Positions 1,559-64,000 of a stretch of DNA of 64,000 bases are shown here, piece by piece. How positions within the stretch are numbered: position 1 is the stretch's first letter; each line of letters starts with the position of its first letter. The notes below the pieces were generated by a model. It was given only the letters and a program-made list of their open reading frames with translations, was not told the origin of the DNA and did no database searches. The stretch lies in contig JAFGGD010000026.1 in NCBI GenBank assembly GCA_016930695.1, positions 114,904 through 178,903 on the forward strand. The letters are read 5' to 3'. The position numbers and the translations under genes are program-made. Source of the stretch: Candidatus Eiseniibacteriota bacterium (GTDB taxonomy: Bacteria > Orphanbacterota > Orphanbacteria > Orphanbacterales > Orphanbacteraceae).

Positions 1559-1886
1559 CGCGAAGTCGAATGAGGCGGCGGGCGCGATTCTCGTTTCGAA
1601 GCTCGCGGAGCGCTCTCTCCCCGTTTCGAGAGAGAGACGGGGCCTTGTTGCCCGATTCCTCTTCGCCTCGATACCGGCGATCCATTTGACATCAAGATCT
1701 TCTCTGTCTATGATCCAAGCGACTCCCACCGTCGGATTCGGAGAATATTGCGTGCCTGTCCGACCCGTCTTCCCGCGCCGCGGAATACCGACCCATCCAG
1801 TGTTCGACAAGGGATAGCGTCCGCCGGCCGGCGGATCGGCCGCCCACCGCGCGGTGGAGGTCTTCGTCGACGTCGCAAGGGGGTAA

Positions 1887-2219
1887 GTGATGACCGGGCC
1901 TAAGGTAGAGATTTCGAGGGAAGAAGCGGCGGAGATCATCGCGCGGCTGAACCGAAAGCGCCGGATCCAGATCGTCGGTCTCGCCATCGCCGTGCTCGCG
2001 ACCTTTCTGGCGCTTCTGTCGAGAGTCATGCCGATGGCCGTCCCGGGGCTGTCCTTCTCTTTCTGGGGTCCGCTCGCCGCCGTCCTGCTATTGGCGAAGC
2101 TGGTCCTGTTCTTCGCGGCTTGGCGCTGTCCGAAGTGTGGGGCGTCGCTGGGTTCCAGCTATCGCCCACGCTTCTGCCCCGGGTGCGGGATCGCCCTGGT
2201 GGATGCCGGCGATCGGTAA
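1887..2219 (+). CDS. Small membrane protein with C-terminal CxxC...CxxC zinc-ribbon
   Basis: 110-aa ORF with two hydrophobic helices and CPKCG...CPGCG motifs. SD-like aagggggtaag lies upstream of the ATG. No recognised family. Confidence 0.35.
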   Translation: MMTGPKVEISREEAAEIIARLNRKRRIQIVGLAIAVLATFLALLSRVMPMAVPGLSFSFWGPLAAVLLLAKLVLFFAAWRCPKCGASLGSSYRPRFCPGCGIALVDAGDR

Positions 2220-2235
2220 TTCCCGTTACACACCA

Positions 2236-2405
2236 CCGGTACCGCATACCCGACCTCGATTTGCCCGGGTACCGGATACCTCTCAACCAAGCGATGGTGT
2301 GAGGGGGGGGCCGGACATCATGATGTGCCGTTTCCCGGCGAAGAAGGTATCCGGTACCCTCTTGCAAGAGAAAAGGTATCCGGTACCAAGGTTCCATCCG
2401 GTACC
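2236..2405. promoter_or_regulatory. Array of five copies of a 13-bp motif GGTATCCGGTACC (two inverted, three direct) in the 5' region of the gene at 2590
   Basis: Copies read directly in the sequence at 2238-2250 (GGTACCGCATACC), 2268-2280 (GGTACCGGATACC), 2346-2358, 2375-2387 (GGTATCCGGTACC) and 2395-2405 (CATCCGGTACC). The region is non-coding in every frame. Confidence 0.4.
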
Positions 2406-2589
2406 AGGGTTCCCTAGGCGCTCATTGCGCGTTATTGTCCCCCATCTCCCGGCGATTCCCCTGGAACGGCCGCCTTTCCTTCCCTTATGCTTGAACCGGG
2501 TTACGACATCGGGCGAGTTTTACTTCACCGAAGCACATCCGGAAAACAGGGATCTCGCGTAAATGACCCTTTCGACGGAGGACGGGCCG

Positions 2590-3828
2590 ATGCATTTCCA
2601 TCTATTGAGCGATCGGGACATGCGCGCCATCGACGCGCTTATCGACTCCTACGGCGGCGCGGAGGCGATCGGAAAGAAGATCGCCGAAACGCGGCTCTAC
2701 AACACCCGCAAGCGGATCGCCGCCGACAAGGGCTTCGGTGAGATGCTCGAAAAGGCGGAATCCTACGCGAGCGACTTCCCGAAGCTCGAGGACTTCCTGA
2801 AGAAGGAGGGGATCCGGCCGGAGAAACAGGGTGTCTGCACCACCCAGGTCTCCGGCTTCCAGGGGGCTCGGGTCACATTCGATTGCATGCGGCGGATCGC
2901 CGAAAACGGCGACGTCCTCTTCCCGACCGAAATGATCTCCGTCGTCGCTCTTACCGAGCGCTACGTCTACAGCGGCGACCTCCTCGCCACCCTCGCCATG
3001 GCGGAAAACATCCTCGGCGCGAGCAAGTTCTGCTCCACCAACCTGATCGGCATTCCGCTCCCGGAGGAGCGTTTCGCCCGCATCGAGAAGGTGACCGGCG
3101 AGAAGTTTCACCGCCGTGATCTCGGCGGGGGGATGAGCCAGATCATCCTGAAAAACATGGGGACCGCCTTCGGCAACCTGGGCGGCGTGGAGGTGGCGGA
3201 TAACAACCACCTCGTCTATCTCGACGGGATCACTCGGGCCGCCCTCGAAACGGGCGCCGACTTCTTCCTCAACCCGAGTTGGTCCACCATCGTCGCCGCC
3301 TGTTACTACGCGCGCCGGATTCCTGAAATCAGCTTCAAGATCTCCATGCTTCTCTCGACGCAGAACGCGATCCAGTTCCGGATGCTGATGAACATCGTCA
3401 AGTCTTACCTGCGAGACGACGGCACCACGCCGATCTACGAGATCAACATCGGAAACGGGGCGAGCCCCGAGACCTTCATGCAGTGCGCCGATGATCTGAA
3501 AGGGGCGGCCGGGATGCCCAACATTTCCCTGACCGCACACCTGCGCATCAACCCGGACCTGGGCATGGAGAATTTCGACTGGACCGAGAACGCGCACAAG
3601 GTGCTCGACGCCGGTTACGACATGACCATCAAGTACGAGAGCGACGGCGCCTCGCGCCCCTACGACACGATGGCGGCCTACTTTCTCCCCGACGAGGAGC
3701 GGGACGAGAAAGCGGAGCTGATCGGAGACGTGATCTACCACAAATGCGTGCGCTGCGATCTGGACGCGAAGGAGATCCTGCGCCGAGGCCACCCGGTCCG
3801 TTACGCCGATATCAGCGTGCGGTCCTAG
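2590..3828 (+). CDS. Conserved hypothetical protein, probably an enzyme; family not recognised
   Basis: Long ORF with balanced, non-repetitive composition. GGAGGA sits 7 nt upstream of the ATG at 2590, so the ATG at 2563 is less likely. It heads a tightly packed four-gene cluster. Confidence 0.55.
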   Translation: MHFHLLSDRDMRAIDALIDSYGGAEAIGKKIAETRLYNTRKRIAADKGFGEMLEKAESYASDFPKLEDFLKKEGIRPEKQGVCTTQVSGFQGARVTFDCMRRIAENGDVLFPTEMISVVALTERYVYSGDLLATLAMAENILGASKFCSTNLIGIPLPEERFARIEKVTGEKFHRRDLGGGMSQIILKNMGTAFGNLGGVEVADNNHLVYLDGITRAALETGADFFLNPSWSTIVAACYYARRIPEISFKISMLLSTQNAIQFRMLMNIVKSYLRDDGTTPIYEINIGNGASPETFMQCADDLKGAAGMPNISLTAHLRINPDLGMENFDWTENAHKVLDAGYDMTIKYESDGASRPYDTMAAYFLPDEERDEKAELIGDVIYHKCVRCDLDAKEILRRGHPVRYADISVRS

Positions 3829-3837
3829 GAGAGAGCC

Positions 3838-4194
3838 GTGAAAAAGTGGATGCAAGAGTGGGACGGAACCCCCTACCCGGAGATGGTGCGCGGCCTACCG
3901 GAGATCGCCGTCCCCTTCGAAGGCGTGCGGGGCTGGCTCCTGCAGGGATCGAGCAATCAGGTCGTTTTCTTCGACATCGAACCGACCGCCCAGGTCCCCC
4001 CGCACTCCCATTGCGCGCAATGGGGTCTCGTGCTCGAGGGGGAGATGGAACTCGCCATCGGCGGTAAGCCCGGGGTCTATAAGAAAGGCGATTGGTATTT
4101 CATCCCGGCCGGCACGGAGCACGCGGCGTCCTTCCGGACCCGATGCGCCGTCATCGATCTGTTCGAGTCGCCGGACCGGTATCGCGTGAAATAG
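3838..4194 (+). CDS. Cupin-domain protein
   Basis: Cupin-like motifs (PPHSH...G, GDWYFIPAGTEHAA). GTG start preceded by AGGAGAGAG. 10 nt downstream of the previous gene. Confidence 0.6.
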   Translation: MKKWMQEWDGTPYPEMVRGLPEIAVPFEGVRGWLLQGSSNQVVFFDIEPTAQVPPHSHCAQWGLVLEGEMELAIGGKPGVYKKGDWYFIPAGTEHAASFRTRCAVIDLFESPDRYRVK

Positions 4195-4266
4195 GAGCGG
4201 CGCTTCGCCGGGCGGTGCCGACGGTCCGCCCGGAACGAGCGAACGCAAGCGACGAAGGAGGATACG

Positions 4267-5286
4267 ATGCGTCTGCTCTTGATCGGTTTCGGCACGGTCG
4301 GCCGCGGGCTCGCCGAGCTGTTGATCGGAAAGCGGGAGACACTGAAGGAGCGATACGGGATCGAACCCGTGGTGGTCGGGATCTCGGACATGAAGACCGG
4401 GAGCCTCTACGATCCGAAGGGAATCGACCTTGCGGCGGCGGTCCGCGAGGCGGAGGAGAAGGGGAGCCTCGCCGGGTTGCCGGGCGGCTTCGACGGCGAC
4501 GCCCTCACCCTGATCGGCTCGGCCGAAGCGGACTGCGTGGTGGAGATGACCTACACGGACATTAAAACCGGCGAGCCGGCCACGAGCCACGTCCGGGCCG
4601 CGCTCGAGCGCGGGATGCACGTGGTCACCACCAACAAGGGACCGGTGGCCCTGAACCTCCCCGCCCTGAACGCCCTGGCCGCGAAGAAAGGGATCCGTTT
4701 CCTTTACGAGGGAACGGTGATGAGCGGCACGCCGGTCTTGAACCTGATCCGGGAGACGTTGGCCGGCTGCGCGATCACCGAGATCAAGGGGATCCTGAAC
4801 GGGACGACCAACTACATCCTCTCCAAAATGGAAGAGGGAATGGACTATGAAGGCGCGCTGAAAAAGGCGCAGGAGTTGGGCTACGCCGAGGCGGTGCCCG
4901 ACGCGGACGTGCTCGGCTGGGACGCCCTGGGCAAGGTGACGATCCTGGCGAACGCCGTTTTCGACGCGCACAAGAAGCCCGCCGATTTTCCCTGCGAAGG
5001 GATTACCGGGATCAGCGCCGAGAGGGTGGCGGACGCCAAGGCCCGCGGAAAACGCTACAAGCTGATCGGCCGCGTGGCGATCGAGAAGGGGAAAGTGGTC
5101 GGCGGCGTCGGCCCGCAAGAGATCGATCTCTCCCACCCGCTCGCCGGAGTCATGGGCGCCGTCAACGCCCTCACCATCACCACCGACGCCCTCGGCGACG
5201 TGACCATCGTCGGCCCGGGCGCGGGACGGGTCGAGACCGGCTACAGCGCGCTGATCGACATCATCCATGCGGGAGGTGCGCGATGA
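4267..5286 (+). CDS. Homoserine dehydrogenase family protein (short form, no ACT domain)
   Basis: N-terminal Rossmann motif LLIGFGTVGRGLAELL. Central region GTTNYIL...A(Q)ELGYAE(A)VP(D)ADV(L)G(W)DA resembles the conserved homoserine dehydrogenase catalytic region. AAGGAGGA SD. Confidence 0.65.
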   Translation: MRLLLIGFGTVGRGLAELLIGKRETLKERYGIEPVVVGISDMKTGSLYDPKGIDLAAAVREAEEKGSLAGLPGGFDGDALTLIGSAEADCVVEMTYTDIKTGEPATSHVRAALERGMHVVTTNKGPVALNLPALNALAAKKGIRFLYEGTVMSGTPVLNLIRETLAGCAITEIKGILNGTTNYILSKMEEGMDYEGALKKAQELGYAEAVPDADVLGWDALGKVTILANAVFDAHKKPADFPCEGITGISAERVADAKARGKRYKLIGRVAIEKGKVVGGVGPQEIDLSHPLAGVMGAVNALTITTDALGDVTIVGPGAGRVETGYSALIDIIHAGGAR

Positions 5287-6704
5287 AGATGCTTCTCGAA
5301 GGCCGGTGGGTCGATCGGGACGAGAAGATCGAGGTCACCGATCCTTTCGATGAATCGGTGATCGACACCGTGCCCAGCGCGTCCCCGAGTGACGTGGAGA
5401 AGGCGCTCGCCGGCGCGGTGCGCGGTTTCGAGATCACCAAACGGATGAGCGTGTACGACCGGGCGCAGATCCTCTTCCGCGCGGCGAGGATCATCGAGGA
5501 GCGGGTCGAGGAATTCGCGACCGTCATCGCCCGGGAAGGCTCCAAGACGATCCGCGAGGCGCGCAAGGAAGCGGGGCGCTGCGTCAACACGCTCACCTGC
5601 TCCGCCGAGGAGGCGAAGAGGATCCTGGGCGAGACGATCCCCTGGGACTCCTTCCCGGGCGGCGAGAAGAGGCGCGGTTATTACTATCGCTTTCCCATCG
5701 GCGTGGTGCTCGCGATCACCCCATTTAACGATCCGCTCAACCTGGTCGCCCATAAGCTCGGTCCCGCCGTGGCGGCGGGGAACGCGGTGATTCTGAAGCC
5801 CGCGACGGTGACCCCCCTTTCGGCGATCAAGCTGGTGGAGGCGCTCGTCGAGGCGGGATTGCCGCCGGAGGCGATCCAGCTGATCACGGGCGTCGGGTCT
5901 CGAATCGGAGAGCCCCTCGTGCGGGACGACCGGGTGCGGATGGTCAGCTTCACCGGGGGCGTGGAGGCGGGGAAATCGGTCGCCGCCGTCGCGGGGATCA
6001 AGAAGATCGGCATGGAGCTGGGGAGCGATTCGCCGGTGATCGTATGGAAGGACGCCGACCTGGAACCGGCGGTGGAATCCTCCGTCTCCGGCGCCTTCTG
6101 GGCGGCGGGCCAGAACTGCATCGGGGTACAGCGGCTCCTGGTGCACGACGCGATATACGACGAGTTCAAGGAGCGCTTCGTCGCGCTGGCCAAGAAGTAC
6201 GTCATCGGCGACAAGATGAAGGAAGAGACCGACATGGGCCCGATGATCACGCGCCGCGAGGCGGAGCGCGTCGAGGAGTGGGTGCGCGAGGCGGCCGAGG
6301 CGGGCGCCGGGATCCTCTGCGGCGGCGGGCGCGACGGCGCTCTTTTCGAGCCGACGGTGATCGAGGAACCTCCCAAGAACGTGCGCATTCACAAAGACGA
6401 GGTTTTCGGGCCGGCGGTGAATCTCTACCGCGTGAACGATCTGGACAAGGCGATCGCCGAGGCGAACTCCCTGCCGTACGGGCTGCTGGCGGCGATCTTC
6501 ACCCGGGACGTGGAGACCGCCTTCAAGGCGGCTTACGAACTGGACTGCGGCGGCGTGATGATCAATGACTCGACCGACTACCGGCTCGACTCGATGCCCT
6601 TCGGCGGCGTCAAATACTCCGGCTTGGGTCGTGAGGGTCTGAAGTTTTCTCTGCAGGAAATGACCGAGCCGAAGGTGGTCTGCTTCCATCTGCCCGGCAT
6701 CTAA
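5283..6704 (+). CDS. Aldehyde dehydrogenase family protein
   Basis: ALDH hallmarks FTGGVEAGK and ELGSDSPVIV, catalytic Cys context GQNCIGVQRLLVH, and EPTVI. 473 aa. ATGA overlap with the upstream gene. Confidence 0.85.
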   Translation: MKMLLEGRWVDRDEKIEVTDPFDESVIDTVPSASPSDVEKALAGAVRGFEITKRMSVYDRAQILFRAARIIEERVEEFATVIAREGSKTIREARKEAGRCVNTLTCSAEEAKRILGETIPWDSFPGGEKRRGYYYRFPIGVVLAITPFNDPLNLVAHKLGPAVAAGNAVILKPATVTPLSAIKLVEALVEAGLPPEAIQLITGVGSRIGEPLVRDDRVRMVSFTGGVEAGKSVAAVAGIKKIGMELGSDSPVIVWKDADLEPAVESSVSGAFWAAGQNCIGVQRLLVHDAIYDEFKERFVALAKKYVIGDKMKEETDMGPMITRREAERVEEWVREAAEAGAGILCGGGRDGALFEPTVIEEPPKNVRIHKDEVFGPAVNLYRVNDLDKAIAEANSLPYGLLAAIFTRDVETAFKAAYELDCGGVMINDSTDYRLDSMPFGGVKYSGLGREGLKFSLQEMTEPKVVCFHLPGI

Positions 6705-19787: not shown

Positions 19788-22700
19788 ATGTCGCGCCGAA
19801 CCCCGCCCCGCATGCCTGCCGGTTATCGCGTGGAGAGCGTGCTCAAATCGGACGGCGAACGGGTGGTGGCGATCGCCCATCCCGCGGACGGCGGCGACAG
19901 GGTCGTATTGAAGGTGGTCGGCCCGCGCGCGGAGGAGATGGCCCGGGTCCGTTTCCATGACGTGATCCGCCTGCAGGGAGACCTCGTTCATCCCGGCATC
20001 TGCCCGATCATCAATGTCGGACGCACGCCCGACGGCGGCGTCTTCGCCGTCTATCCTTACGTGAAAACCGTCGATCCGGCGGCGTGGACGGCGGTGGATC
20101 GGAAGACCCGTTTTCCTCTCGTCGTGCGCGCCCTCTCGGAGCCGGTCGCCTTTCTCCACGAACACGGCCACGTTCACGGCGACCTCAAACCGTCGAACAT
20201 CCTGTTCCGGGCGGAGGAGGGGGAGATTCGCGATCTTCTTCTTACCGATTTTCTCCCTCCCCTCTTTTTTCGCGGGGACCGGCTCGGGACGATCGCCGGA
20301 ACATTGGGATACCTCGCCCCCGAGGCGATCCGCGGAAACGAACCGGATCACCGTTCCGATCTCTACTCGCTCGGCGCGACCCTCCACGAGATCCTCACCG
20401 GAAGCCCTCTCTTCACCGGTTCGGCGGAGGAGGTGGCTTGGGGGCATCTGTCGGCTCGGCCGCGGGTCGGCGCGCCGCGGGAGTGGAACCTTCCCGCTCG
20501 ATGGAACGAAGCATTGGAGCGTTTGCTCGCGAAGAGCCCCGCGGACCGGCCTCAGACGGCGCGGGATTTCCTGGCCGACTTCTTCGATGAAAAGCCCGGA
20601 AGCGGGCGCGTCACCGTGGTCGCCCGTCCCCCCCTGGTCGGCCGGGACTCCCTGCTCGAGGAGATGCGCGATTGGTCGAGCCTGGACGACCGCCCCTGTC
20701 TCGCCCTCCGGGGGGAGAAGGGGTGGGGGAAGACCCGCCTTCTCCGCGAATTCTCCCTTCAGCTCCGTTTGGACGGCGAGAAAGTCGCCTTCCTCTCCGT
20801 CCCGGAGGCGGTGTGCGACCGGCCTTACGAGGGGGCTCGCCTCCTCCTCGCGGCGATCTCCGCCGATCCCCTGCGGTGGGATCTGGGGCGCATCGCGTCG
20901 TCGCCGAGGCGCTCGGGGACGGCCGGGTCGAGCGGCGAACTCTCCCTCTTCCGCGCGATCTACCGGATCTGGGAAGAGAGGATCGCCGGTTTCGCGGATC
21001 GGGGAGGAAAGCCGATTCTCGTGATCGTCGACAACCTGGATCATTTCGACGACTCCTCTCTCCGTTTCTTCCGTTTCCTCCTTGATCGTGACGGTCCGCC
21101 GCCGGTCCGTTTTCTCGCCTCGATCGGATCGGTCGAATCCCCTCAGCTCTCCTCCCTTCTCGACCGTTTCGAGGAGCGAGGATTGCTCCGGACCTTAATG
21201 CTCGAGGTGCTCAGTGATTCCGACGTGGAAGAGTGGATTCGAGGCGTCCTCGGAAACGGAAAGGTCGACCCCGGGTTGACGCGGGAGGCGGTTCGTCGTT
21301 CCGGCGGCGTGCCGGCGCGGCTGGAGGGGCTGGCCAGGCGGTGGATCGCGCGCGGGCGCGTGCGGCGGAAGTACGGATCCTTCACGCTGTCCGAGACTCC
21401 GGCGCCGGGTGACGACGCGGGCGCCGGGGAGGAGAGCGCCGTCGGGCTCGATCCCGCCGGGCTTCCCCCGCGGGCGGCGCTGCTGGCCGCCGCCGTCGCC
21501 CTCTCGCCCATCGCGGGCGACGCGCCTTTCTATAGGAGGCTTCTCGGCGTTCCCGAGGAGGACTGGCCGGTGCTGGTGAACGCCCTGGTCGGGCGCGGGT
21601 GGATCCGGATCGATCCCGATCCCGCCGGCGATCGCTACTCCTTGAAAGACGAGGCGTTCCGCCCGGCGTTGGCCGGGATGATTTCGGCCGACACGCGGAC
21701 GAAGCTGCATCGCGCCGCGGCGCGGCTCCGCGCGGAGGAGGAGAAGAGGGGGGTGGAGGGAGCCTCGCTGATCGTCGCGCACCACCTGGCGGGCGCCGGA
21801 TCGTTCGCGGCGGCGAGACGGAAGCTCATGAAGGCGGCGGAGGGGATGGAACGTCTCTTTCTCTTCCGGGACGCGGCGCGGCTTTACCGGCGCGCCTCCG
21901 CCGTCGATCCCGGGAGCATCGCTCCCGGCGAGAGGGCGAAACTCCTTCTCCGGCTCGCCGAAACGCGGTTCCGGGCCGGCGAGACGCGGGGCGCCCGGGC
22001 GGCGGCGCGGCTTCTCCTCGCGTGGGGCCGCGACCGTGGGATCGATCGGTCCACGATTATCCGGGCCGGGCTTCTGGACGCCTGGATCTTCTGCAATCAA
22101 GGGAATCCCGGGCGCGCGGAGAAGAAACTCCGGGCCCTTCTGAGTCCCCCGGAGGGACTGTCACCGCGGGACCGGGCGGCGATCCTTCGCGATCTGGGGT
22201 GGGCGCTGCTCGACCAGAACCGGAAGGAGGAAGCCGGCCGGGCGCTCCGATCGGGGCTGGAGGCGCTCAAGGGAACGCGCGAGAGGGTGCTGAAAGGTCA
22301 AATCTTCAACCGTCTCGGAGCGATCGCCTATAACGGCCACGACTGGGCGCGCGCCATCACGTTTTACCGGCGGGCGGTCCGCGTCTTAGAGGGAACCGCG
22401 CCCGGCGAGGCGGTCCCCCCCTTGTCCAATCTGGCGCTCATTTATTATTGGACGGGGCGGCTTCGCGATGCGCGGGAGTCGATGGAGCGGACCCTCCGGA
22501 TCGCCCGGGAGACGGGAAACCTGATCGAGGAGGCGCGCATCTCGGAGGATCTGGCCCGCGTGTTCGCGCGTCTGGGCCGTTGGGAGGAAGCAGGTCGTCT
22601 TTTTCACGAAGCGTTCGTCACCTTCCGGGAGTACGGCGAGAGCGCTCACGAGGCGACCACGCTCCTCAGCATGGGGCACGCGGCCCGGGAGAGGGGAAGG

Positions 22701-24971
22701 CTCGTCGAGGCGCTCCGCCTCTCCGAGGACGGTCTCCGGATCGGTCGCCGGATCGTCAAGCCGATGCGGCTCGTCGACGGATTGAATCTGCTCGCGCTCT
22801 GTCACATCGCCCGGGAAGAACCGGATCGCGCGGAGGCGGTCCTCGCGGAGATCGAATCGCTCGCGCCGGGGGGATTGGGGGGGCGTCAGCTCGCCCTGAA
22901 CACGCGAACCCGGGGGAGGCTCGCCCGCCTGAGGGGAAGTTACGATGAGGCGGAAGTGCTTTTCGAGGAAGCGCTCCGCCTTTTCAAGTCGCAGAAGGCG
23001 AAACTCAACCTCGTTGAAACGCTTCTGATGATCGCGGCGTGCCGTCTGGATCGGGGAACGGGCCGCTCGCCTCTGGAGTCGCTCCGCTACGCCGAGCGCG
23101 CAATGAAACGGGAGGAGTATCCCCTGTTCGCCGTCCGGCTCCGTTTGTTGAAGGGGCGTTACGAGGAGAGCAGGGGACGGATCGCCGAGGCGGAAGCGCT
23201 CTACCGAGGGGTCGTGCGCGACGCCCGGCGGTTGGATCTCCGGATCGATCTGGCCGAGTCACTCGCACGACTGGGCGCCGTTTTCGCCGCGCAGGGGGCG
23301 AAGCGGCGGGCGAAGCGTCGTCTCGAGGAGGCGAAATCCCTTTACGACCGGATCCGTTTCGTCACTCCTCCTCCATTCCTCTCCCGTCTGCTGGCGAGCC
23401 TTCCCGGCCGGGAGGAAGCGCTCGGCGAAAGTTTTCAGACGATCTGCCGCATCTCGGAGGTGATCAATTCCCGGCGCGACGAGGAGCAGGTCCTCGCTTA
23501 TGTGTTGGATCAGGCGGTGGATTACCTTGGGGCGGAGAGGGGGCTGATTCTGCTGCGCGAGCCGGACGGTCGTCTCTTGCCGCGCAAGGCGCGTTCCCTG
23601 GAAGGAGAGAACCTGGCGGACGTGAGCCGATTCAGTCGCACCGTCTTCGGCATGGCGGAGCGATCCGAGGAGCCCTTCGTCACGGACAACGCCCTTCGAG
23701 ACGAGCGGTTCAGCGGCGCGGAGAGCGTGGCCTCCTTCAGCATTCTCTCCGTGATTTGCGCGCCCATCCGCTCCCGCGACCGGTTGATCGGAGCGATCTA
23801 CCTCGATCATCGCGAAACGGAGGGCGTCTTCTCGCCGCGCGACGTGAGGATCCTCGAAGCTCTCTCCCATCTCACCGGCATCGCGTTCGAGAACGCCCGC
23901 TACCGGCGCCTGTTGGAGAGCGAAAACGAGATGCTGCGCGAGGAGATCGACAGGCGGGAGCACGTCCACGACATCGTCACCGAGAGCCCGGTCATGAAAG
24001 GGATCCTCGACCGGCTTCGCCGGGCGGCGCGGGGGCGCATGCCGATTCTTCTCCTCGGGGAGACGGGCGTGGGGAAGAGCCTGATTGCCGGTTTCATCCA
24101 CGAAGAGAGCGACCGCCGGGACAAAGCCTTCCGCTCCCTCAACACGACGGCGATCCCGGAGACGCTCTTCGAGTCGGAGGTCTTCGGTAGCGAGCGGGGC
24201 GCCTTCTCCGGCGCGGATCAGCGCCGGATCGGGGCGTTCGAGCGGGCCGACGGGGGAACCCTCTTCCTGGACGAGATCGGCGGCATGAAAGTGGAGACCC
24301 AAAAGAAACTGCTTCGAGCCCTTCAAGACGGCACCTTCGAGAGACTGGGAGGAAGCGAAACGCTCCGGTCGGACGTCCGCCTCATCTCCGCCACCAACCA
24401 GGACCTCCAGTCGCTCATCGCCCGCGGCCTCTTTCGCAGCGATCTTCTTTACCGGATCAACGCGGAAACGGTGACGATTCCCCCTCTCCGGGAACGGCGG
24501 GAGGACATCATCCCCCTCGCGCGCGCTTTCCTGAAGAAGCACGCCCGGGAGAACCGCCGCCCGGTCCGCTCTATCTCCGACGAGGTCCTTTCCCTGTTTC
24601 TGTTCCACCATTGGCCGGGGAACGTGCGGGAGCTGGACTCCGCCATCGTGCGCGCCGTCTCCCTGTGCGACGGGGAACGGATCGAGGTGCGGGATCTGCC
24701 GGAGCACTTGAGCGCTCTCTTCCCGTCGATGGGGGCGGGTGGCTCGAGATCGAAGAAGCCGGAAGCCGATCTCGGGGCGGAGATGCGGGACATCGAGCGC
24801 GGCCGGGTTCTCGACGCGCTCCGCGGGAGCGATTGGAACAACACGGCCGCGGCGAAAAAGCTGGGCGTCCACGAATCCACGGTTCGGAAAAAGAGGAAGC
24901 AATACGGCCTCGATCGTTTCCGGCCGAAATCGTCTCCGCCGGACGACCCGTACGATCATACGAATCACTGA
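19788..24971 (+). CDS. Giant regulator: Ser/Thr protein kinase, STAND/AAA ATPase, TPR array, GAF, sigma-54 interaction AAA+ domain, Fis-type HTH
   Basis: Kinase motifs HGDLKPSNILF, DFL (DFG variant), GTLGYLAPE. Walker A GEKGWGKT. Long TPR-like helical region. GAF domain. Sigma-54 activator Walker A GETGVGKS, GAFSGA (GAFTGA variant), GGTLFLDEIG and R-finger region. C-terminal HTH AAKKLGVHESTVRKK. Confidence 0.85.
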   Translation: MSRRTPPRMPAGYRVESVLKSDGERVVAIAHPADGGDRVVLKVVGPRAEEMARVRFHDVIRLQGDLVHPGICPIINVGRTPDGGVFAVYPYVKTVDPAAWTAVDRKTRFPLVVRALSEPVAFLHEHGHVHGDLKPSNILFRAEEGEIRDLLLTDFLPPLFFRGDRLGTIAGTLGYLAPEAIRGNEPDHRSDLYSLGATLHEILTGSPLFTGSAEEVAWGHLSARPRVGAPREWNLPARWNEALERLLAKSPADRPQTARDFLADFFDEKPGSGRVTVVARPPLVGRDSLLEEMRDWSSLDDRPCLALRGEKGWGKTRLLREFSLQLRLDGEKVAFLSVPEAVCDRPYEGARLLLAAISADPLRWDLGRIASSPRRSGTAGSSGELSLFRAIYRIWEERIAGFADRGGKPILVIVDNLDHFDDSSLRFFRFLLDRDGPPPVRFLASIGSVESPQLSSLLDRFEERGLLRTLMLEVLSDSDVEEWIRGVLGNGKVDPGLTREAVRRSGGVPARLEGLARRWIARGRVRRKYGSFTLSETPAPGDDAGAGEESAVGLDPAGLPPRAALLAAAVALSPIAGDAPFYRRLLGVPEEDWPVLVNALVGRGWIRIDPDPAGDRYSLKDEAFRPALAGMISADTRTKLHRAAARLRAEEEKRGVEGASLIVAHHLAGAGSFAAARRKLMKAAEGMERLFLFRDAARLYRRASAVDPGSIAPGERAKLLLRLAETRFRAGETRGARAAARLLLAWGRDRGIDRSTIIRAGLLDAWIFCNQGNPGRAEKKLRALLSPPEGLSPRDRAAILRDLGWALLDQNRKEEAGRALRSGLEALKGTRERVLKGQIFNRLGAIAYNGHDWARAITFYRRAVRVLEGTAPGEAVPPLSNLALIYYWTGRLRDARESMERTLRIARETGNLIEEARISEDLARVFARLGRWEEAGRLFHEAFVTFREYGESAHEATTLLSMGHAARERGRLVEALRLSEDGLRIGRRIVKPMRLVDGLNLLALCHIAREEPDRAEAVLAEIESLAPGGLGGRQLALNTRTRGRLARLRGSYDEAEVLFEEALRLFKSQKAKLNLVETLLMIAACRLDRGTGRSPLESLRYAERAMKREEYPLFAVRLRLLKGRYEESRGRIAEAEALYRGVVRDARRLDLRIDLAESLARLGAVFAAQGAKRRAKRRLEEAKSLYDRIRFVTPPPFLSRLLASLPGREEALGESFQTICRISEVINSRRDEEQVLAYVLDQAVDYLGAERGLILLREPDGRLLPRKARSLEGENLADVSRFSRTVFGMAERSEEPFVTDNALRDERFSGAESVASFSILSVICAPIRSRDRLIGAIYLDHRETEGVFSPRDVRILEALSHLTGIAFENARYRRLLESENEMLREEIDRREHVHDIVTESPVMKGILDRLRRAARGRMPILLLGETGVGKSLIAGFIHEESDRRDKAFRSLNTTAIPETLFESEVFGSERGAFSGADQRRIGAFERADGGTLFLDEIGGMKVETQKKLLRALQDGTFERLGGSETLRSDVRLISATNQDLQSLIARGLFRSDLLYRINAETVTIPPLRERREDIIPLARAFLKKHARENRRPVRSISDEVLSLFLFHHWPGNVRELDSAIVRAVSLCDGERIEVRDLPEHLSALFPSMGAGGSRSKKPEADLGAEMRDIERGRVLDALRGSDWNNTAAAKKLGVHESTVRKKRKQYGLDRFRPKSSPPDDPYDHTNH

Positions 24972-32988: not shown

Positions 32989-33250
32989 TCCGCTCCCTCC
33001 CGCTGAGTGTTCGTGGATTGAAGATAATGCGGTTTTCTACGCATGGGAAGGGAATTCGGGGGGAACGTTTTCGGGTTTTTTTCGGAGGGGAGATTCCCCT
33101 CCGGTACCGGATTCTCTTTTCGCGAACGAAGTGGGTGAATAGGTGTTCGGCACCGACAAGTGGATACGTAATGACGCCTCCCGCATATGGTATCCCTGTT
33201 TTCCGGTGCAGACTCGCCATTTCTTGCGCAGGGAGACGGCAGAGCCTAAA

Positions 33251-34762
33251 ATGAACGGGAAGAGAGCGGATCGACCCGACAAAGAAGGGGCCGGCTTGGA
33301 GAATTCTCCTTCCATCGTATGGTTCCGGAGGGATCTGCGGGTTCGCGACAACCGGGCGCTCGCAGCCGCCGCGGCGCGGGGCGGTACGGTCCTGCCCGTC
33401 TTCATCTGGGCGCCCGAGGAAGAGGGGAAGTGGGCGCCGGGCGAGGCCTCCCGCTGGTGGCTCCACCACTCCCTCGAATCGCTCGGCCGCTCCCTCCGTT
33501 CCCTCGGCGCGCCCCTCGTCCTCCGGCGCGGTCCTTCCCGCGAGGCGCTCCTCGATCTCGCCGGCGAAACCGGCGCCGGCGCGGTCTATTGGAACCGTCT
33601 CTACGATCCGGGGCCGGCGAAGCGCGACCGGAGCATCGCCCGCTCTCTCACCGCCGCGGGGATCCTTGCCGAGGGCTTTCCCGGCGCGCTCCTCTTCGAG
33701 CCGGAGGATGTTCGATCCGGCTCGGGCGGGCCCTACCGGGTCTTCACCCCATTCTGGAACCGCCTTCTCTCCCTGCCGGAGCGCGGCGCCGGTCCGGATG
33801 CTCCGAATCGCATGATCGCTTCCGAGAAAAAACCACGCTCTCTTCCTCTTGCGGACCTCGGCCTCCTCCCGCGCGTCGATTGGGCGGCGGGGCTCCGGGA
33901 AGCGTGGACGCCGGGAGAAGAGGGCGCCGTCGCCCGGCTCGATCGTTTTCTCCGCGAAGGGATCGGCGGCTACGACGCCGAGAGGAACCGCCCCGACCGG
34001 GAGGGAACCTCACGGCTCTCGCCGCACCTCTGTTGGGGAGAGATCGCGCCGTCGCGGGCGTGGAGCGAAGCGCGCCGCCGGGCGTCGCGCCTCCGGAGCG
34101 AGAAGACGCGCGCCTCCGCCCTCGCCTGGCTCCGCCAGCTCGCATGGCGCGAGTTCGCCGCCCACCTGCTCCACCACTATCCGAGCACGGTCGAGCACCC
34201 CCTCCGGGAGGAGTTCCGGCGATTCCCATGGCGGCGGAGCCGGAAGGACCTCGAAGCGTGGCGGGAAGGAAGGACCGGATACCCGATCGTCGACGCCGGA
34301 ATGCGCCAACTGCGGGCGACCGGATGGATGCACAACCGTGTCCGCATGATCGCGGGCAGTTTTCTTGTAAAGGATCTGCGTCTCCACTGGCTCGAGGGGG
34401 CGCGCTGGTTCTGGGATACGTTGGTCGACGCGGATCTGGCGAACAACACGCTCGGCTGGCAGTGGGTCGCCGGTTGCGGGGCGGACGCGGCCCCGTATTT
34501 CCGTGTTTTTAACCCGGTCGCCCAGGGGGAGCGGTACGATCCCGAAGGGGCGTACGTGAAACGCCATGTCCCGGAGCTGGCCGGACTTCCCGCGAAGTCG
34601 ATCCACCGCGCCGGCGAAGCGCCCGCGGAAGCGCCGGCCGCGACCGGCCTCCAAGCGGGTCGCGATTATCCGCCGCCGATGGTCGACCATGCCCGCGCCC
34701 GCGAGGAAGCGCTTCTCGCCCTCGCCGCGATGAAGGGCGTGAAGAAGCGGAACCGGCGATGA
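33251..34762 (+). CDS. phr: Deoxyribodipyrimidine photolyase / cryptochrome family
   Basis: N-terminal IVWFRRDLRVRDNRAL. C-terminal FAD-binding signatures TGYPIVDAGMRQL, WMHNRVRM, GWQWVAGCGADAAPYFRVFNP. Start uncertain between 33143 and 33251. Confidence 0.85.
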   Translation: MNGKRADRPDKEGAGLENSPSIVWFRRDLRVRDNRALAAAAARGGTVLPVFIWAPEEEGKWAPGEASRWWLHHSLESLGRSLRSLGAPLVLRRGPSREALLDLAGETGAGAVYWNRLYDPGPAKRDRSIARSLTAAGILAEGFPGALLFEPEDVRSGSGGPYRVFTPFWNRLLSLPERGAGPDAPNRMIASEKKPRSLPLADLGLLPRVDWAAGLREAWTPGEEGAVARLDRFLREGIGGYDAERNRPDREGTSRLSPHLCWGEIAPSRAWSEARRRASRLRSEKTRASALAWLRQLAWREFAAHLLHHYPSTVEHPLREEFRRFPWRRSRKDLEAWREGRTGYPIVDAGMRQLRATGWMHNRVRMIAGSFLVKDLRLHWLEGARWFWDTLVDADLANNTLGWQWVAGCGADAAPYFRVFNPVAQGERYDPEGAYVKRHVPELAGLPAKSIHRAGEAPAEAPAATGLQAGRDYPPPMVDHARAREEALLALAAMKGVKKRNRR

Positions 34763-34850
34763 GGGACGGGGCGCGCTTGATTTATCCGCGCGTATTCGAT
34801 TATCGGGAGAAGATGCTCCGCGAGATCATCCGGGGCGAGGGGAGGAGGGA

Positions 34851-35813
34851 TTGGTGAACGATCATCGCAAAAAGATCCCCATCGGGGTGAGTCGCTGCCT
34901 TCTCGGCGATCCGGTCCGTTTCGACGGCGGCCACAAGAGGAGCCGTTTCCTCACCGACGTGCTCGCCGAGTGGTTCCGTTTCGTGCCGGTCTGCCCGGAG
35001 GTGGAGATCGGCCTCGGCGTCCCGCGCGAATCGATCCGCCTGGTCCGGAGCGACTCGGGCCCCCGTCTCGTGGGGAGCCGGACCGGAAAAGACCGTACCG
35101 AAAAAATGAACCGTTTCACGGAAGAGAGGGCGGAGGGGCTCGCGCCGCTCCGGCTCCGCGGTTTCGTGCTGAAGAGCACCTCCCCCACCTGCGGATTCGA
35201 GCGGGTGCGTATTTACGATACGAACGGCGTGCCGACCAAGGACGCCCGCGGTTTTTGGGGCGGGCGGCTCATGGACCGCTTCCCCCTGCTGCCGATCGAG
35301 GATGAGGGGCGCCTCAACGACCCGCGAATCCGGGAGAACTTCATCGTCCGTCTTTTCACATACGACCGATGGCTCCGGCTCCGGGAAGGGACGGTCCGGC
35401 CGCGGGATCTGGTGGACTTTCACACCGCCCACAAGATGCTCGTTCTCGCCCACAGCCCGAAGGCGATGACCGAGATGGGGCGTCTCACCGCCCGGGCGGG
35501 CGCGGACCCGATGGAGGATCTGCTGGACCGATACGAGGCGGAGATGATGACCGGGCTGCGGAAGATCGCATCGCCGGGGAAACACGTGAACGTGCTCGAG
35601 CACTTCGCCGGTTTCCTCAAGAAGGGGCTCGACCGGGAATCGAAAGCCGAACTGCACGACCTGATCGGCGAGTACGGGCGGGGATGGGTCCCCCTGATCA
35701 CGCCTCTCTCGCTCCTCCGGCACCACCTGAGGCGGCTCGGCCACGAGTGGGTGGAGGCGCAGGTCTATCTGCGGCCCTACCCGCGGGAGCTGGCGCTCCG
35801 GAGCACGATCTGA
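34851..35813 (+). CDS. ybgA: YbgA-like protein (DUF523 + DUF1722)
   Basis: The N-terminal half (GVSRCLLGDPVRFDGGHK...) and C-terminal helical half match the YbgA architecture. Adjacent to the photolyase gene, as in E. coli ybgA-phr. Confidence 0.65.
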   Translation: MVNDHRKKIPIGVSRCLLGDPVRFDGGHKRSRFLTDVLAEWFRFVPVCPEVEIGLGVPRESIRLVRSDSGPRLVGSRTGKDRTEKMNRFTEERAEGLAPLRLRGFVLKSTSPTCGFERVRIYDTNGVPTKDARGFWGGRLMDRFPLLPIEDEGRLNDPRIRENFIVRLFTYDRWLRLREGTVRPRDLVDFHTAHKMLVLAHSPKAMTEMGRLTARAGADPMEDLLDRYEAEMMTGLRKIASPGKHVNVLEHFAGFLKKGLDRESKAELHDLIGEYGRGWVPLITPLSLLRHHLRRLGHEWVEAQVYLRPYPRELALRSTI

Positions 35814-38708: not shown

Positions 38709-39185
38709 ATGCCACGACCGATGCGAAGAAAAATCATCTCTCACGGAATCGACCGGCGCGCTTTCAAGCCGGTCGGCGTTCCCCGCACCGGGCTCGAAAC
38801 CGTCTACCTCACCCTCGACGGGCTGGAGGCGATCCGCCTGGCCGACGGCGAGGGTCTTTACCAAGAAGCCGCGGCGGAGAGAATGGACGTTTCGCGCACC
38901 ACATTTTCGCGGATTCTCGCGGCCGCGCGGCGCGCCGTGGCGGAAGCGCTTCTTGAAGGAAAAGCCCTCGAGATACGCGGCGGAGTCGTGGACCGCTCCC
39001 CCGCGGGACCCCATCCATGCCCGGTGCATGGAGGGGTGAGACGGACGGGGCGGGGTTGCCGTTGCGGTCCCAGAGACGGACACGGGCGGGGCATGAGGGC
39101 GGACGGAGAAAGCGAGCAATCTATGGACGAGAAACATCCCGGCGGGGACGACAAAGCCCGGCCGGACGAGGAGGAAAGTCGATGA
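38709..39185 (+). CDS. DUF134 (UPF0251) putative DNA-binding protein
   Basis: Family-typical N-terminus MPRPMRRKI and FKPVGVP, with a sigma-70-region-4-like HTH. The upstream part of the long ORF in this frame is junk. Stop overlaps the next start (ATGA). Confidence 0.6.
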   Translation: MPRPMRRKIISHGIDRRAFKPVGVPRTGLETVYLTLDGLEAIRLADGEGLYQEAAAERMDVSRTTFSRILAAARRAVAEALLEGKALEIRGGVVDRSPAGPHPCPVHGGVRRTGRGCRCGPRDGHGRGMRADGESEQSMDEKHPGGDDKARPDEEESR

Positions 39186-39766
39186 AAATCGCAATCACGG
39201 CGATGGGCGACGGATTGGACGCCGAGGTCAGCCCCGTTTTCGGGCGGGCCCCCTATTTTCTTTATGTGGACGTCGAAAGCGGCGAGGTGGAGGCATTGGT
39301 GAATCCTTCGGTGGACGCGCCGGGAGGGGCCGGAATCCGTTCCGCCCAGATCGTCGCGGACTCGGGGGTGGGCGCGGTCGTGACCGGACGACTCGGCCCG
39401 AACGCCTCACGTGTTCTTCAGGAGACCGGGTTGGACCTTTTCCGCGCGCGTGCCGGCACGGTCCGGGAGAATCTGGACGCTTTCCGCGGCGGGACGCTCG
39501 AACGTCTCGATGACGTGGGGGAGGCGGGGTTCGGGGGGAAACCGGGCGCGATGGGCGGCGGTCGTGGCGGCGGCATGGGCGGCGGCGGCGGGAGCGGAAT
39601 GGGGAGTGGTCGTGGTGGCGGCATGGGTGGTGGCGGTGGCATGGGCGGTGGTCGAGGCGGTGGTGGCGGTATGGGGGGCGGCCGTGGCGGCGGCGGCGGT
39701 CGTGGCGGCGGCGGTGGTGGTGGCGGCGGTGGTGGCCGTGGTGGTGGTGGCGGCGGCGGGCGCTGA
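39182..39766 (+). CDS. NifX/NifB-like dinitrogenase FeMo-cofactor-domain protein with an approximately 80-aa Gly/Arg/Met-rich low-complexity tail
   Basis: The first roughly 110 aa (MKIAITAMGDGLDAEVSPVFGRAPYFLYVDVESGEV...) match the NifX/NafY fold family. The tail consists of GGRGGGMGGGG repeats. Confidence 0.7.
   Translation: MKIAITAMGDGLDAEVSPVFGRAPYFLYVDVESGEVEALVNPSVDAPGGAGIRSAQIVADSGVGAVVTGRLGPNASRVLQETGLDLFRARAGTVRENLDAFRGGTLERLDDVGEAGFGGKPGAMGGGRGGGMGGGGGSGMGSGRGGGMGGGGGMGGGRGGGGGMGGGRGGGGGRGGGGGGGGGGGRGGGGGGGR
39535..39763 (+). repeat. Imperfect GGC/GGT tandem-repeat tract encoding (G3-5 R/M)n
   Basis: Read directly: repeated ggcggtggtcgtggcggcggcatgggcggc units over about 230 bp. 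Confidence 0.7.
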
Positions 39767-61648: not shown

Positions 61649-63292
61649 ATGGATTGCAAGGGTATGGTGGTCGAGGTGCTCAAGAAGCACCGTAACGTGT
61701 TGGAGAACCTGGAACGAAAAGAGATGATCCGCCACTCCTTGGAGAACAAGGAGGCCTTCGCTTCGGCGAACGGGGCGCTCGCCACCTGGACGCCGGTGGA
61801 GTCGACCGGCCGCTCCCCCAAGGACACGCTGATCGTGAAACGCCCGGAGAGCGCGGGGAACATCGACTGGGATTCCCCCAATAACCTCCCCGTCGATCCG
61901 GAGACCTTCGAGATGCTCTGGAAGGACGCGGTGGAGGTCCTCTCCAAGAAAGACAGGATCTACATCACGGACCGCACCGTGGGCGCCGACTCCTCCTACG
62001 CCCTGCCGATCCGCACCATCGCCGATCAGGCGTTGACGGTCCTCTTCACGGACAACATGTTCCGCGCCGTCCCGGAGGACATCGGCAAGAGCTGCTTCGC
62101 AGGGAAGGGGTTCACCCTCCTGGTCATTCCCTACGACAAGGTGAAGGCGGAGAAGTACGAGGGGCGGCTCCGCAAAACGGCGAGCGGCGCGACCTCCGAC
62201 ATGGCGATCGTCATGGACATGGACAACCATGTCGGGCTCGTCTACGGCAGCGCCTACGGCGGCAGCGTGAAGAAGCTGATGTTCACGGTGATGAATTACC
62301 TGCTCCCGCTGAACGGCGTTCTCCCGCTCCACTGCAGCGCCAACGAGGGTGCCCGCGGGGACTGCGCGCTCCTGCTCGGCCTTTCCGGCACGGGGAAGAC
62401 GAGTCTCTCCGCCGATCCGACCCGCGCGCTTCTCGGCGACGACGAGCACGGCTGGAACGACACGGGGATCGCCAACTTCGAGAACGGCTGCTACGCCAAG
62501 CTGATCAATCTCCGCGAGGCGAAGGAGACGGAGATCTGGAACGCCGTCTTCCACGAGGCGGATCCGCTCGAGCACGGGGCGATCATCGAGAACTGCATGA
62601 TGTACCCGGACGGGCGTTTCGACGTGGATGACGAGCGGCTGACGCCGAACTCCCGCGGTTCCTACCCGCTCCGCTTCCTCAGCAACATCCAGACGCCGCC
62701 CGTGAGCGGCCACCCCAAGACGATTCTCTTCCTCACGGCCGACGCGAACGCGGTGCTCCCGCCGGTGGCGCGCCTCAACCAGGAGCAGGCGATGCTCTGG
62801 TTCCTGATGGGGTACACGAGCAAGCTGGCCGGAACCGAGCGGGGCGTGGTCGATCCGGTCTCCACCTTCTCCCGCTTCTTCGGGTCTCCCTTCATGCCGC
62901 TCAATCCGGACATCTACGCGCGGATGCTCGGCGAGAGGATGGCGAAGCACGGGAGCAGCGTCTATCTGGTGAACACCGGCTGGAGCGGCGGCCCGTACGG
63001 CGTCGGAAAACGGATGGACATCGGCCTCACGCGGGCGATCGTCGCCGCCGCGCTCGAAGGGCACCTGGAGAACGTCGCCTACGAAACGGATCCGCTCTTC
63101 CATATCGACGTGCCGAAGGAGTGCCCCGGCGTGCCGGCTGAAGTGCTTCAGCCCCGAAATACCTGGACGGACAAGAAAGCCTACGACGACCGCGCGAAAA
63201 AGCTGGCGGCCGACTTCGTGAAGGCGTACGATAAGGCGTACGGCAACAAAAACATCGACCCCAAGGTGGCGGGCCAGTGTCCGGGTAAATAA
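61649..63292 (+). CDS. pckA: Phosphoenolpyruvate carboxykinase (ATP)
   Basis: PckA signatures: kinase-1a LLGLSGTGKTSLSADP; LLGDDEHGW; ENGCYAK; C-terminal GW.GGPYG. Start at the ATG after AAGGGGGGAGAG. The upstream part of the long ORF is junk. Confidence 0.9.
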   Translation: MDCKGMVVEVLKKHRNVLENLERKEMIRHSLENKEAFASANGALATWTPVESTGRSPKDTLIVKRPESAGNIDWDSPNNLPVDPETFEMLWKDAVEVLSKKDRIYITDRTVGADSSYALPIRTIADQALTVLFTDNMFRAVPEDIGKSCFAGKGFTLLVIPYDKVKAEKYEGRLRKTASGATSDMAIVMDMDNHVGLVYGSAYGGSVKKLMFTVMNYLLPLNGVLPLHCSANEGARGDCALLLGLSGTGKTSLSADPTRALLGDDEHGWNDTGIANFENGCYAKLINLREAKETEIWNAVFHEADPLEHGAIIENCMMYPDGRFDVDDERLTPNSRGSYPLRFLSNIQTPPVSGHPKTILFLTADANAVLPPVARLNQEQAMLWFLMGYTSKLAGTERGVVDPVSTFSRFFGSPFMPLNPDIYARMLGERMAKHGSSVYLVNTGWSGGPYGVGKRMDIGLTRAIVAAALEGHLENVAYETDPLFHIDVPKECPGVPAEVLQPRNTWTDKKAYDDRAKKLAADFVKAYDKAYGNKNIDPKVAGQCPGK

Positions 63293-63330
63293 TCCCGGCC
63301 CCGGCGGTTGCCGCCGTTCCTTCCGCGTCC

Positions 63331-63356
63331 GGCCCCGGGCTTCACGGCCCGGGGCC
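63331..63356 (+). terminator. GC-rich hairpin (GGCCCCGGG-N8-CCCGGGGCC) followed by ATTTCT, downstream of pckA
   Basis: Perfect 9-bp inverted repeat read directly 40 bp after the pckA stop. The T-tract is weak. Confidence 0.4.
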
Positions 63357-63364
63357 ATTTCTAT

Positions 63365-63430
63365 CGGGTAACCAGATACCCTGTTTGCAACAAGTTGTCC
63401 GGTGCCGCGCAAGTACCGGGTACCCGGTAT
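63365..63430. promoter_or_regulatory. Two GGTACC-containing palindromes (GGGTAACCAGATACCC and GTACCGGGTACCCGGTAT) related to the motif array at 2236-2405
   Basis: Read directly in the intergenic region between pckA and the aminopeptidase gene. Confidence 0.3.
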
Positions 63431-63580
63431 CGCGAAACGCCCGGTCGCGATATAATCGAATGGTTCGGGCCGGCCTCCGGATCCGACCGGCTACGGGCCC
63501 AAAGCGGGGTCGGCCCCGAACACTTTTCCGTCGTGTGGGTTTTAAGCGGCTTGCGCGAAACGAGCCGGAGGAGGGGATCG

Positions 63581-64000
63581 ATGAAGGACGTGCGCGTGGA
63601 GCGCCTGGCCGAGCTGATCTGCCGGTATTCGATCGGCGTCAAGAAGGGGGACGCCATCGTCGTCAACTATGAACCGGTTTCGGAGCCACTCGCCCGGGAG
63701 CTGTATCGGGAGATCCTCCTGATGGGGGGGCACCCGATTCTCGACATCAATCCGGGTTGGCGGGAGGAGATCTACTACCGCGAGGCGCAGCCGCATCAGC
63801 TCGATTACACCAGCCCCTTCCTCCTTCACGAGGCGGAGAACACGCGCGCGCGGATCGTGATCCACGGGTCGACCAACACCCGGCGGAACAGCTCCGTCGA
63901 TCCCAAGCGGATCTCGCGCGCCCAGCAGGCGCGCCGGCCGATCCTGGAGACCTTCTTTGGCCGGATGGATAAAAAGGAATGGAGCTTCGTCATCGCCCCC
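63581..64000 (+). CDS. M29-family aminopeptidase (AmpS/PepS-like), 5' portion; runs off the window end
   Basis: Frame open from the ATG after GGAGGAGGGGA to the window end. N-terminus MKDVRVERLAELICRYSIGVKKGD resembles aminopeptidase T/PepS. Not in the ORF track because no stop falls inside the window. Confidence 0.55.
   Translation, partial: MKDVRVERLAELICRYSIGVKKGDAIVVNYEPVSEPLARELYREILLMGGHPILDINPGWREEIYYREAQPHQLDYTSPFLLHEAENTRARIVIHGSTNTRRNSSVDPKRISRAQQARRPILETFFGRMDKKEWSFVIAP

Follow-up and report, generated by a model that had tools for sequence, protein, structure and literature searches.

A mirror-image array of a 13-nt motif upstream of a four-gene operon in a strain group of Candidatus Eisenbacteria, a possible cluster of protein-binding sites

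The DNA analysed here, called the window throughout, is a stretch of 64 kb from a MAG of Candidatus Eisenbacteria with a G+C content of 66.6%; proteins encoded in it are 100% identical to the NCBI entries JW958_04620 and JW958_04625. Near its left end a non-coding gap of 370 bp (2220–2589) separates an ORF for a small membrane zinc-ribbon protein (1887–2219), whose GC3 of 0.80 is of the coding type, from a gene with an ATG at 2590 that is preceded by GGAGGA and conserved as the start in relatives. The gap thus has the extent given for it in the first-pass annotation, and an alternative start at ATG 2563 was discarded as it is not conserved in relatives. The gap is followed by four genes:

2590–3828, plus strand, gene for an undescribed protein of 412 aa, predicted to be a TIM barrel
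3838–4194, plus strand, cupin gene, the second gene of the cluster 2590–6704
4267–5286, plus strand, homoserine dehydrogenase gene (NF004912, 410 bits)
5283–6704, plus strand, aldehyde dehydrogenase gene, the last of the cluster

The cluster had been called uncharacterised, which is true of its first gene but not of the other three, whose products could be named. The 412-aa protein gave no sequence match in Pfam, NCBIfam or the PDB. Its AF2 model (pLDDT 83.5, pTM 0.86) has eight alternating strand-helix units and an N-terminal helical domain, and the modelled fold reads as a (beta/alpha)8 barrel; a Foldseek search of the PDB reached only E = 2e-3 at best, with the barrels of MTHFR, pyruvate kinase and aldolase. 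The protein is 75–82% identical across Zixibacteria, Aminicenantes, MAGs labelled Ignavibacteria, and Deferrimicrobium, and its gene is always followed by those for the cupin, the homoserine dehydrogenase and the aldehyde dehydrogenase, an arrangement that is conserved in Zixibacteria, Aminicenantes and other phyla. The four genes appear to constitute an undescribed metabolic operon, possibly spread by horizontal transfer.

Two features in the right part of the gap lie close to the operon:

2435–2440, plus strand, -10-like hexamer TATTGT, putative
2453–2589, plus strand, leader of 137 nt with a sharp upstream boundary at 2453

The hexamer is found about 20 nt past the last heptad-like unit of the array described below and reads TATCGT in the other strain; no consensus σ70 promoter was detected. 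The leader, which does not include the array, is 97–99% identical across lineages whose coding sequence has diverged by 13% (26% at third codon positions). It has no match in Rfam, its predicted fold is no better than that of shuffled sequence (z = +0.9), and it is taken as the conserved regulatory or 5'UTR part of the gap, perhaps a promoter/operator or else a leader of an undescribed kind.

The array itself consists of four full copies and one partial copy of the 13-mer GGTATCCGGTACC, arranged as mirror images in this single gap, with two palindromes between them:

2238–2250, minus strand, copy 1, on the plus strand GGTACCGCATACC, the motif's reverse complement but for 1 mismatch; minus-strand reading GGTATGCGGTACC
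2268–2280, minus strand, copy 2, GGTACCGGATACC, the exact reverse complement of the motif
2315–2326, no strand, perfect 12-bp palindrome ACATCATGATGT in the 65-bp segment between the arms, 7 bp off the symmetry centre
2346–2358, plus strand, copy 3, exact GGTATCCGGTACC
2359–2370, no strand, perfect palindrome CTCTTGCAAGAG between copies 3 and 4, centred on TTGCAA
2375–2387, plus strand, copy 4, exact GGTATCCGGTACC, forming with copy 3 a 15-nt direct repeat AAGGTATCCGGTACC
2393–2405, plus strand, partial copy 5, TCCATCCGGTACC, with 3 mismatches and an exact 10-nt core ATCCGGTACC at 2396–2405

Five copies had been annotated, and those at 2238, 2268, 2346 and 2375 are indeed full, while the fifth, placed at about 2395, is the partial one. 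Copies 1 and 2 read GGTACCG(C/G)ATACC. Copy 5 derives from an 18-bp tandem duplication (ATCCGGTACCARGGTTCC, 2378–2413) that is still perfect in the strain represented by assemblies L118 and L275. The array begins 19 nt past the stop codon of the upstream gene and its mirror symmetry is centred at about 2313; the inner pair of copies makes a perfect 15-nt inverted repeat (2267–2281 with 2345–2359) with 63 nt between the arms, and the arms of the outer pair, which agree at 12 of 13 positions, are 124 nt apart. Counted from start to start, the copies are spaced by 30 and 29 bp, in agreement with the first-pass annotation, with a further 18–21 bp to the partial copy. Measured from centre to centre the distances are 30, 78, 29 and 18 bp, corresponding to 2.86, 7.4, 2.76 and 1.7 turns, and since these are not multiples of the helical repeat the sites do not share one face of the helix; the phased binding first proposed on the ground of the 29–30 bp spacing, which is a non-integral 2.8 turns, is not supported. 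Likeness among the copies is limited to 13–15-mers, and the spacers of 17, 65, 16 and 8 nt are unrelated to each other, so that simple tandem duplication cannot account for the copies, the 18-bp duplication behind copy 5 excepted, and selection on a short word recognised by a protein fits better than plain duplication.

The five array copies were aligned with six weaker ones (at most 3 mismatches, near the other loci described below). Conservation is highest at the centre, TCCGG, with CCGGT as an invariant core, and in these 11 strong and weak copies T5 and G9 keep their asymmetry, a result that is biased because the weak copies were picked by their similarity to the 13-mer. The conserved centre and the kept asymmetry favour reading the word as a direct pair of heptads, GGTATCC-GGTACCN, over a symmetric palindrome of the form GGTA-N5-TACC, which weakens the earlier idea of a symmetric site for a dimer.

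Related sites occur at two other places in the window, here called locus 3 and locus 2, the array being locus 1:

33101–33115, minus strand, locus 3 site, exact 10-nt core GGTACCGGAT inside the palindrome TCCGGTACCGGA
33142–33154, weaker copy at locus 3, GGTGTTCGGCACC
63365–63380, minus strand, variant palindrome at locus 2, GGGTAACCAGATACCC, with one extra central base, followed by TGTTTGCAACA
63394–63406, plus strand, weak copy at locus 2, GTTGTCCGGTGCC, 3 mismatches
63412–63432, plus strand, tandem heptads at locus 2, AGTACCG GGTACCC GGTATCG, ending 18 nt before the TATAAT at 63451–63456

Locus 3 occupies a 98-bp gap between divergent genes for an OmpA-like (OmpA-family) protein and a photolyase, purely a promoter position. 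Locus 2, whose palindromes at 63365–63431 are present as first annotated between pckA and the M29 aminopeptidase gene, lies past the terminator hairpin of pckA and ahead of the aminopeptidase start (ATG 63581), and its TATAAT is not accompanied by a -35 hexamer. At loci 1 and 2 the heptads end 18–20 nt ahead of the -10-like hexamer, and a palindrome centred on TTGCAA is found 3–4 nt past a motif copy at each; TTGCAA occurs only 4 times in the window, two of them being these. By local alignment the three loci have at most about 19 nt in common, which fits a regulon and not a family of mobile elements. The inverted geometry of the array is absent at loci 2 and 3, and the target genes of the three loci have no obvious common functional theme, which counts against a regulon.

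Within the 64 kb the motif is clearly over-represented and restricted to non-coding, promoter-proximal DNA. At up to 2 mismatches the 13-mer has 8 matches against 1.32 expected, a number reached in 0 of 100 shuffles, and GGTA-N5-TACC has 4 against 0.02 expected by chance. Seven of the 8 matches fall in three non-coding gaps that together make up 756 bp, or 1.2% of the window. A similar density in coding sequence had been named as the finding that would speak against a regulatory element; the single coding match among the 8 favours the regulatory reading on the scale of the window. The hexamer GGTACC is found 10 times, 5 of them within the 170-bp array. Avoidance of GGTACC, as in restriction-modification, was considered and dropped, as the 5 copies outside the array compare with 5.6–7.3 expected from Markov models of order 1, 3 and 4 (order 2 gave 18).

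Four assemblies, each from a different sample, have the array, and neither its orientation nor its copy number varies among them. The assemblies represent two haplotypes, the window being identical to L274 and L118 identical to L275. Between the haplotypes the 370-nt gap has six differences, and the motif copies contain none of them; five of the six are in the 233-nt array part, and sparing of the copies to this extent is weak evidence, with p of about 0.2 by chance. Over the zinc-ribbon gene, the array and the leader the haplotypes are about 99% identical, and from 2604 onward they have diverged by 13% (26% at third codon positions). In its TIM-barrel allele L118 agrees at 98.8% identity with a further assembly, L262, which has the B-type operon allele and has kept the 137-nt leader with 97% identity; the sequence above 2453 is unrelated in L262, and no motif is found in the 103 nt available there, which cover the positions of copies 3–5 only. 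Compared in this way, the array goes with the upstream block and not with one operon allele. The region 1841–3246 of the window is thus a recombination mosaic relative to L118/L275 and L262, with breakpoints at 2453 and at about 2590–2604, flanking the leader, and the occurrence of the allele switch in two independent assemblies excludes a chimera of the assembly. Elsewhere the motif is missing: the syntenic relatives L266 and L267 (pckA 77% identical) do not have it in the spacer between pckA and the M29 gene, no cluster of it occurs in about 64 kb of more distant Eisenbacteria-like relatives (L266–L273), and 80 orthologous loci in other phyla, one of them with an upstream gap of only 38 bp, have neither the motif nor an analogous upstream array. 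Among the assemblies and relatives compared, the array is confined by sequence to one strain group. Turnover of the sites is possible since the relatives are distant (77–87%). The small regulon suggested by the first-pass annotation is thus in line with the weaker clusters in two promoter-type gaps, to which the third site at 33101–33115 has been added, but not with conservation, as the sites are not kept in relatives.

We tentatively read the array as protein-binding sites that form a lineage-specific cluster upstream of the operon promoter and leader, with a probability of roughly 45%. A short word amid diverged spacers, its non-coding position, its recurrence at two promoter-type gaps and its proximity to -10-like hexamers favour this. 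The missing adjacent regulator, the lack of conservation of the array, the non-helical spacing and the lack of a consensus σ70 promoter count against it. In the mechanism that we propose, one sequence-specific DNA-binding protein, encoded elsewhere in the genome, would recognise the array, each site being a 13-bp directional word of two adjacent heptads, GGTATCC-GGTACCN. The two sites on the left and the two and a half on the right would face each other across the 65-bp segment, and several heptad-reading or dimeric protein units might bind the mirrored pairs co-operatively, 29–30 bp apart, possibly with the centre looped out. Such a complex would sit directly upstream of the likely promoter (TATTGT, 2435) and the 137-nt leader and could either activate or repress the operon, and the weaker words ahead of the M29 aminopeptidase gene, where they abut the -35 position of the TATAAT promoter, and in the gap shared by the OmpA-like and photolyase genes might belong to the same small regulon. 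An array of cis-elements is a familiar kind of structure, and as such the finding is modest and of an ordinary type. We know of no cultured member of Candidatus Eisenbacteria and of no regulator-site pair in this phylum, and if the sites are real operators they would be a first handle on its gene regulation and a pointer to the control of a very conserved, undescribed operon. The leader and the adjoining TIM-barrel gene are probably more valuable leads than the array.

A transcription factor co-occurring with the motif had been expected, and none was found in the window. Pfam scans of the called ORFs of at least 60 aa show no DNA-binding domain next to the array, and the sole DNA-binding protein that they show in the 64 kb is a σ54 activator of 1727 aa, encoded at 19788–24971, 17 kb from the array. 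This protein combines a Ser/Thr kinase, a STAND AAA_16 ATPase with TPR repeats, a GAF domain, a σ54 activator domain and a Fis-type HTH, by its sequence an unusual architecture that would join signalling to enhancer binding in one polypeptide. The upstream activating sequences (UAS) of σ54 enhancer-binding proteins, such as the NtrC sites about 32 bp apart at glnAp2, resemble the array in having several sites about 30 bp apart at 100–300 bp upstream of a gene, and the window does encode an activator with a Fis-type HTH, but its gene is distant and no acceptable -24/-12 promoter (GG-N10-GC), as would be expected 80–200 bp downstream of such sites, follows any of the three loci. A σ54 promoter with UAS was accordingly rejected, the best scores after the array being 5–7 of 12, under the window-wide background maximum of 9.

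Two other classes of operator come to mind. Ribbon-helix-helix (RHH) proteins read heptads, as omega of pSM19035 does, and the 13-bp element of CopG and the metboxes of MetJ are further examples. As in operators of the omega type the unit here is 7 bp, with two or more contiguous, direct or inverted (GGTATCC-GGTACCN, and the three heptads starting at 63412); as in RHH arrays the units overlap the -35 region or directly precede it, and one word is reused at several promoters. In contrast to RHH arrays, which are long uninterrupted runs, the heptads are paired with spacers of 16–17 bp, neither an RHH gene (among ORFs of at least 60 aa) nor a partition ATPase gene adjoins them, and the RHH heptad WATCACW is unrelated in sequence to GGTAYCN. 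Arrays for Lrp/AsnC (feast/famine) proteins have sites of 13–15 bp placed about 30 bp from centre to centre, and the 13-bp sites, the spacing of about 30 bp and the multiplicity of sites, which suggests a wrapped or oligomeric complex, are similar, but the best-conserved centre is G+C-rich, the site lacks symmetry, 78 bp separate the pairs and no AsnC-family gene is present in the window. More generally, the Pfam scans of called ORFs of at least 60 aa found no integrase, invertase, transposase, RAYT, RHH or AsnC gene in the window. A literature search with the word gave cloning primers only. A scan of viral sequences with a 14-mer gave single chance matches only, and the many viral matches that share an 18-mer probably go back to one conserved phage sequence.

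Several rival explanations are kept alive by the distribution at strain level, by the missing factor and by the small part of the genome covered. The main one is that the array belongs to a strain-specific dispersed intergenic repeat of the REP/BIME or MITE kind, whose short palindromic units would have spread into non-coding gaps and would act, if at all, through RNA hairpins or as sites for a housekeeping protein and not as gene-specific operators, which we regard as unlikely. REP sequences are imperfect palindromes of 20–40 nt that form a stable stem-loop, with tens to hundreds of copies genome-wide and a RAYT gene, and MITEs have terminal inverted repeats, a target-site duplication and whole-length copies elsewhere. 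Like these, the array is strain-specific and intergenic, its copies are clustered in both orientations, and it starts just past a stop codon, 19 nt away; three loci per 64 kb would be expected if such a family had a few hundred copies, the orthologous gaps of relatives do not contain the array, the 18-bp tandem duplication shows that it is evolving by slippage, and the RNA of the whole region folds well (-81.7 kcal/mol, z = -3.1 against shuffled sequence), as any inverted repeat must. On the other hand the unit is too short for a stable hairpin, single motif units with their flanks forming weak ones of -2 to -9 kcal/mol only. Despite the inverted arms no whole element can be recognised in the at most about 19 nt that the loci share, the 170-bp unit is not flanked by a target-site duplication, one locus lies between divergent genes, the window has no RAYT or transposase gene, and nothing similar is found among 72,556 plasmid records. 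A neutral origin, in which local and inverted duplication left a young minisatellite-like patch without function, appears still less likely. In its favour are the exact identity of three copies, the recent 18-bp tandem duplication behind the fifth, the limitation of the array to one strain group and the recurrence of the same pair of 11-mers in numerous unrelated tandem repeats and heptad microsatellites of metagenomes. Such a patch does not account for the unrelated spacers, for copies that are inverted as well as direct, for degenerate related copies clustered at two distant non-coding loci, or for the identity of the array in two strains whose flanks differ by 1%.

The inverted copies could also pair in a read-through transcript or a small RNA, giving a hairpin for processing, stabilisation or termination. 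The nested inverted repeats of 15 and 13 nt and the z-score of the fold point in this direction, and so do the lack of an intrinsic terminator on the plus strand between the upstream gene and the array and the presence on the minus strand of a terminator-like hairpin with a T-run (2407–2370). This explanation is nevertheless quite improbable, for the helices would enclose unrelated internal loops of 16–17 nt and a loop of 63 nt, the inverted geometry is missing from loci 2 and 3, the arms are identical between strains and hence cannot show covariation, and Rfam has no credible match: the whole window gave 0 at gathering thresholds, and permissive scans (E up to 5) of 2200–2620 and 63250–64000 gave only a spurious miRNA match at E = 0.15. 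A sponge RNA with GGA hairpins of the CsrA type was dropped because GGA loops are missing at loci 2 and 3. Very improbable, finally, is a substrate for site-specific recombination, either an invertible promoter between the 15-bp inverted repeats or an attP-like site with 2 + 3 arm-type sites. The mirror-image layout resembles the arm sites of lambda attP, the perfect 15-bp inverted repeat surrounds 63 bp, and breakpoints do occur nearby, but these flank the leader at 2453 and about 2590–2604 and are not within the array, the orientation is the same in four independent assemblies, contrary to what an inverton would show, and no integrase or invertase gene is present in the window.

A scan of metagenomes gave 60 loci with two exact 11-mers 5–35 nt apart. 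One of them, L118, is the same locus as the array, and the others, as the null predicts for any 11-mer, are heptad microsatellites or tandem repeats unrelated to the array. Ten of the loci (eight independent) contain uninterrupted (GGTACCN/GATACCN/GGCACCN)n runs of 4–14 heptads in non-coding DNA, mostly on high-GC contigs, among them runs of 6–14 units at the following positions:

L128, 455–500, heptad run
L140, 2357–2402, heptad run
L103, 1552–1615, heptad run
L141, 388–486, heptad run
L133, 230–279 and 1394–1464, heptad runs
L086, 50–99 and 430–472, heptad runs

Two of these loci are placed 50–190 bp upstream of tRNA operon promoters. The L128/L140 runs are found 66–110 bp upstream of a tRNA-Arg/tRNA-Lys operon with the promoter TTGACG-17-TAGGAT, and the L103 run about 140–205 bp upstream of tRNA-Gly/tRNA-Cys. 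The runs in L086, probably an actinobacterium, and in L133 flank a short segment or gene. No heptad run was found in 2.1 Mb of control loci. Tandem repeats of heptanucleotides are known, for example the cyanobacterial STRR, and the runs in L086, L103, L128/L140, L133 and L141 have the same heptad word as the array and are likewise non-coding, but they are uninterrupted, whereas neither the array nor the rest of the window has a run of three or more strict heptads. Since a search for exact pairs must recover tandem repeats and the window has no strict run, we take the heptad runs as a curiosity and not as relatives of the array. A wider reading, in which GGTATCC-GGTACCN would be the word of an undescribed heptad-reading protein that forms a mirror-symmetric complex and controls a small regulon including a horizontally exchanged operon, and in which the (GGTACCN)n runs upstream of tRNA promoters in other high-GC bacteria would be the same kind of element, is improbable.

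Some other features of the window were recorded. Downstream of the TATAAT at locus 2 a long G+C-rich hairpin, GGTTCGGGCCGG...GGCCCCGAAC, followed by ACTTTTCC, is found at 63463–63535; it has no Rfam match, and its sequence would be compatible with a small RNA or with a leader of the attenuator type for the M29 aminopeptidase gene. A tRNA-Ser(gct) of 97 nt called by ARAGORN on the minus strand (63867–63963) lies inside the aminopeptidase ORF, has no counterpart among Rfam tRNAs at E up to 5, and is a probable false positive. Downstream of locus 3, at 33143–35813, the photolyase gene is followed by a DUF523/DUF1722 gene (YbgA-like, '2-thiouracil desulfurase'), a pairing which we take to be the same as that of ybgA-phr in E. 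coli. The ORF 39017–39766 carries, after a Nitro_FeMo-Co (NifX/NifB-like) domain, a long GGC-rich coding repeat (39551–39759) that specifies a Gly-rich stretch.
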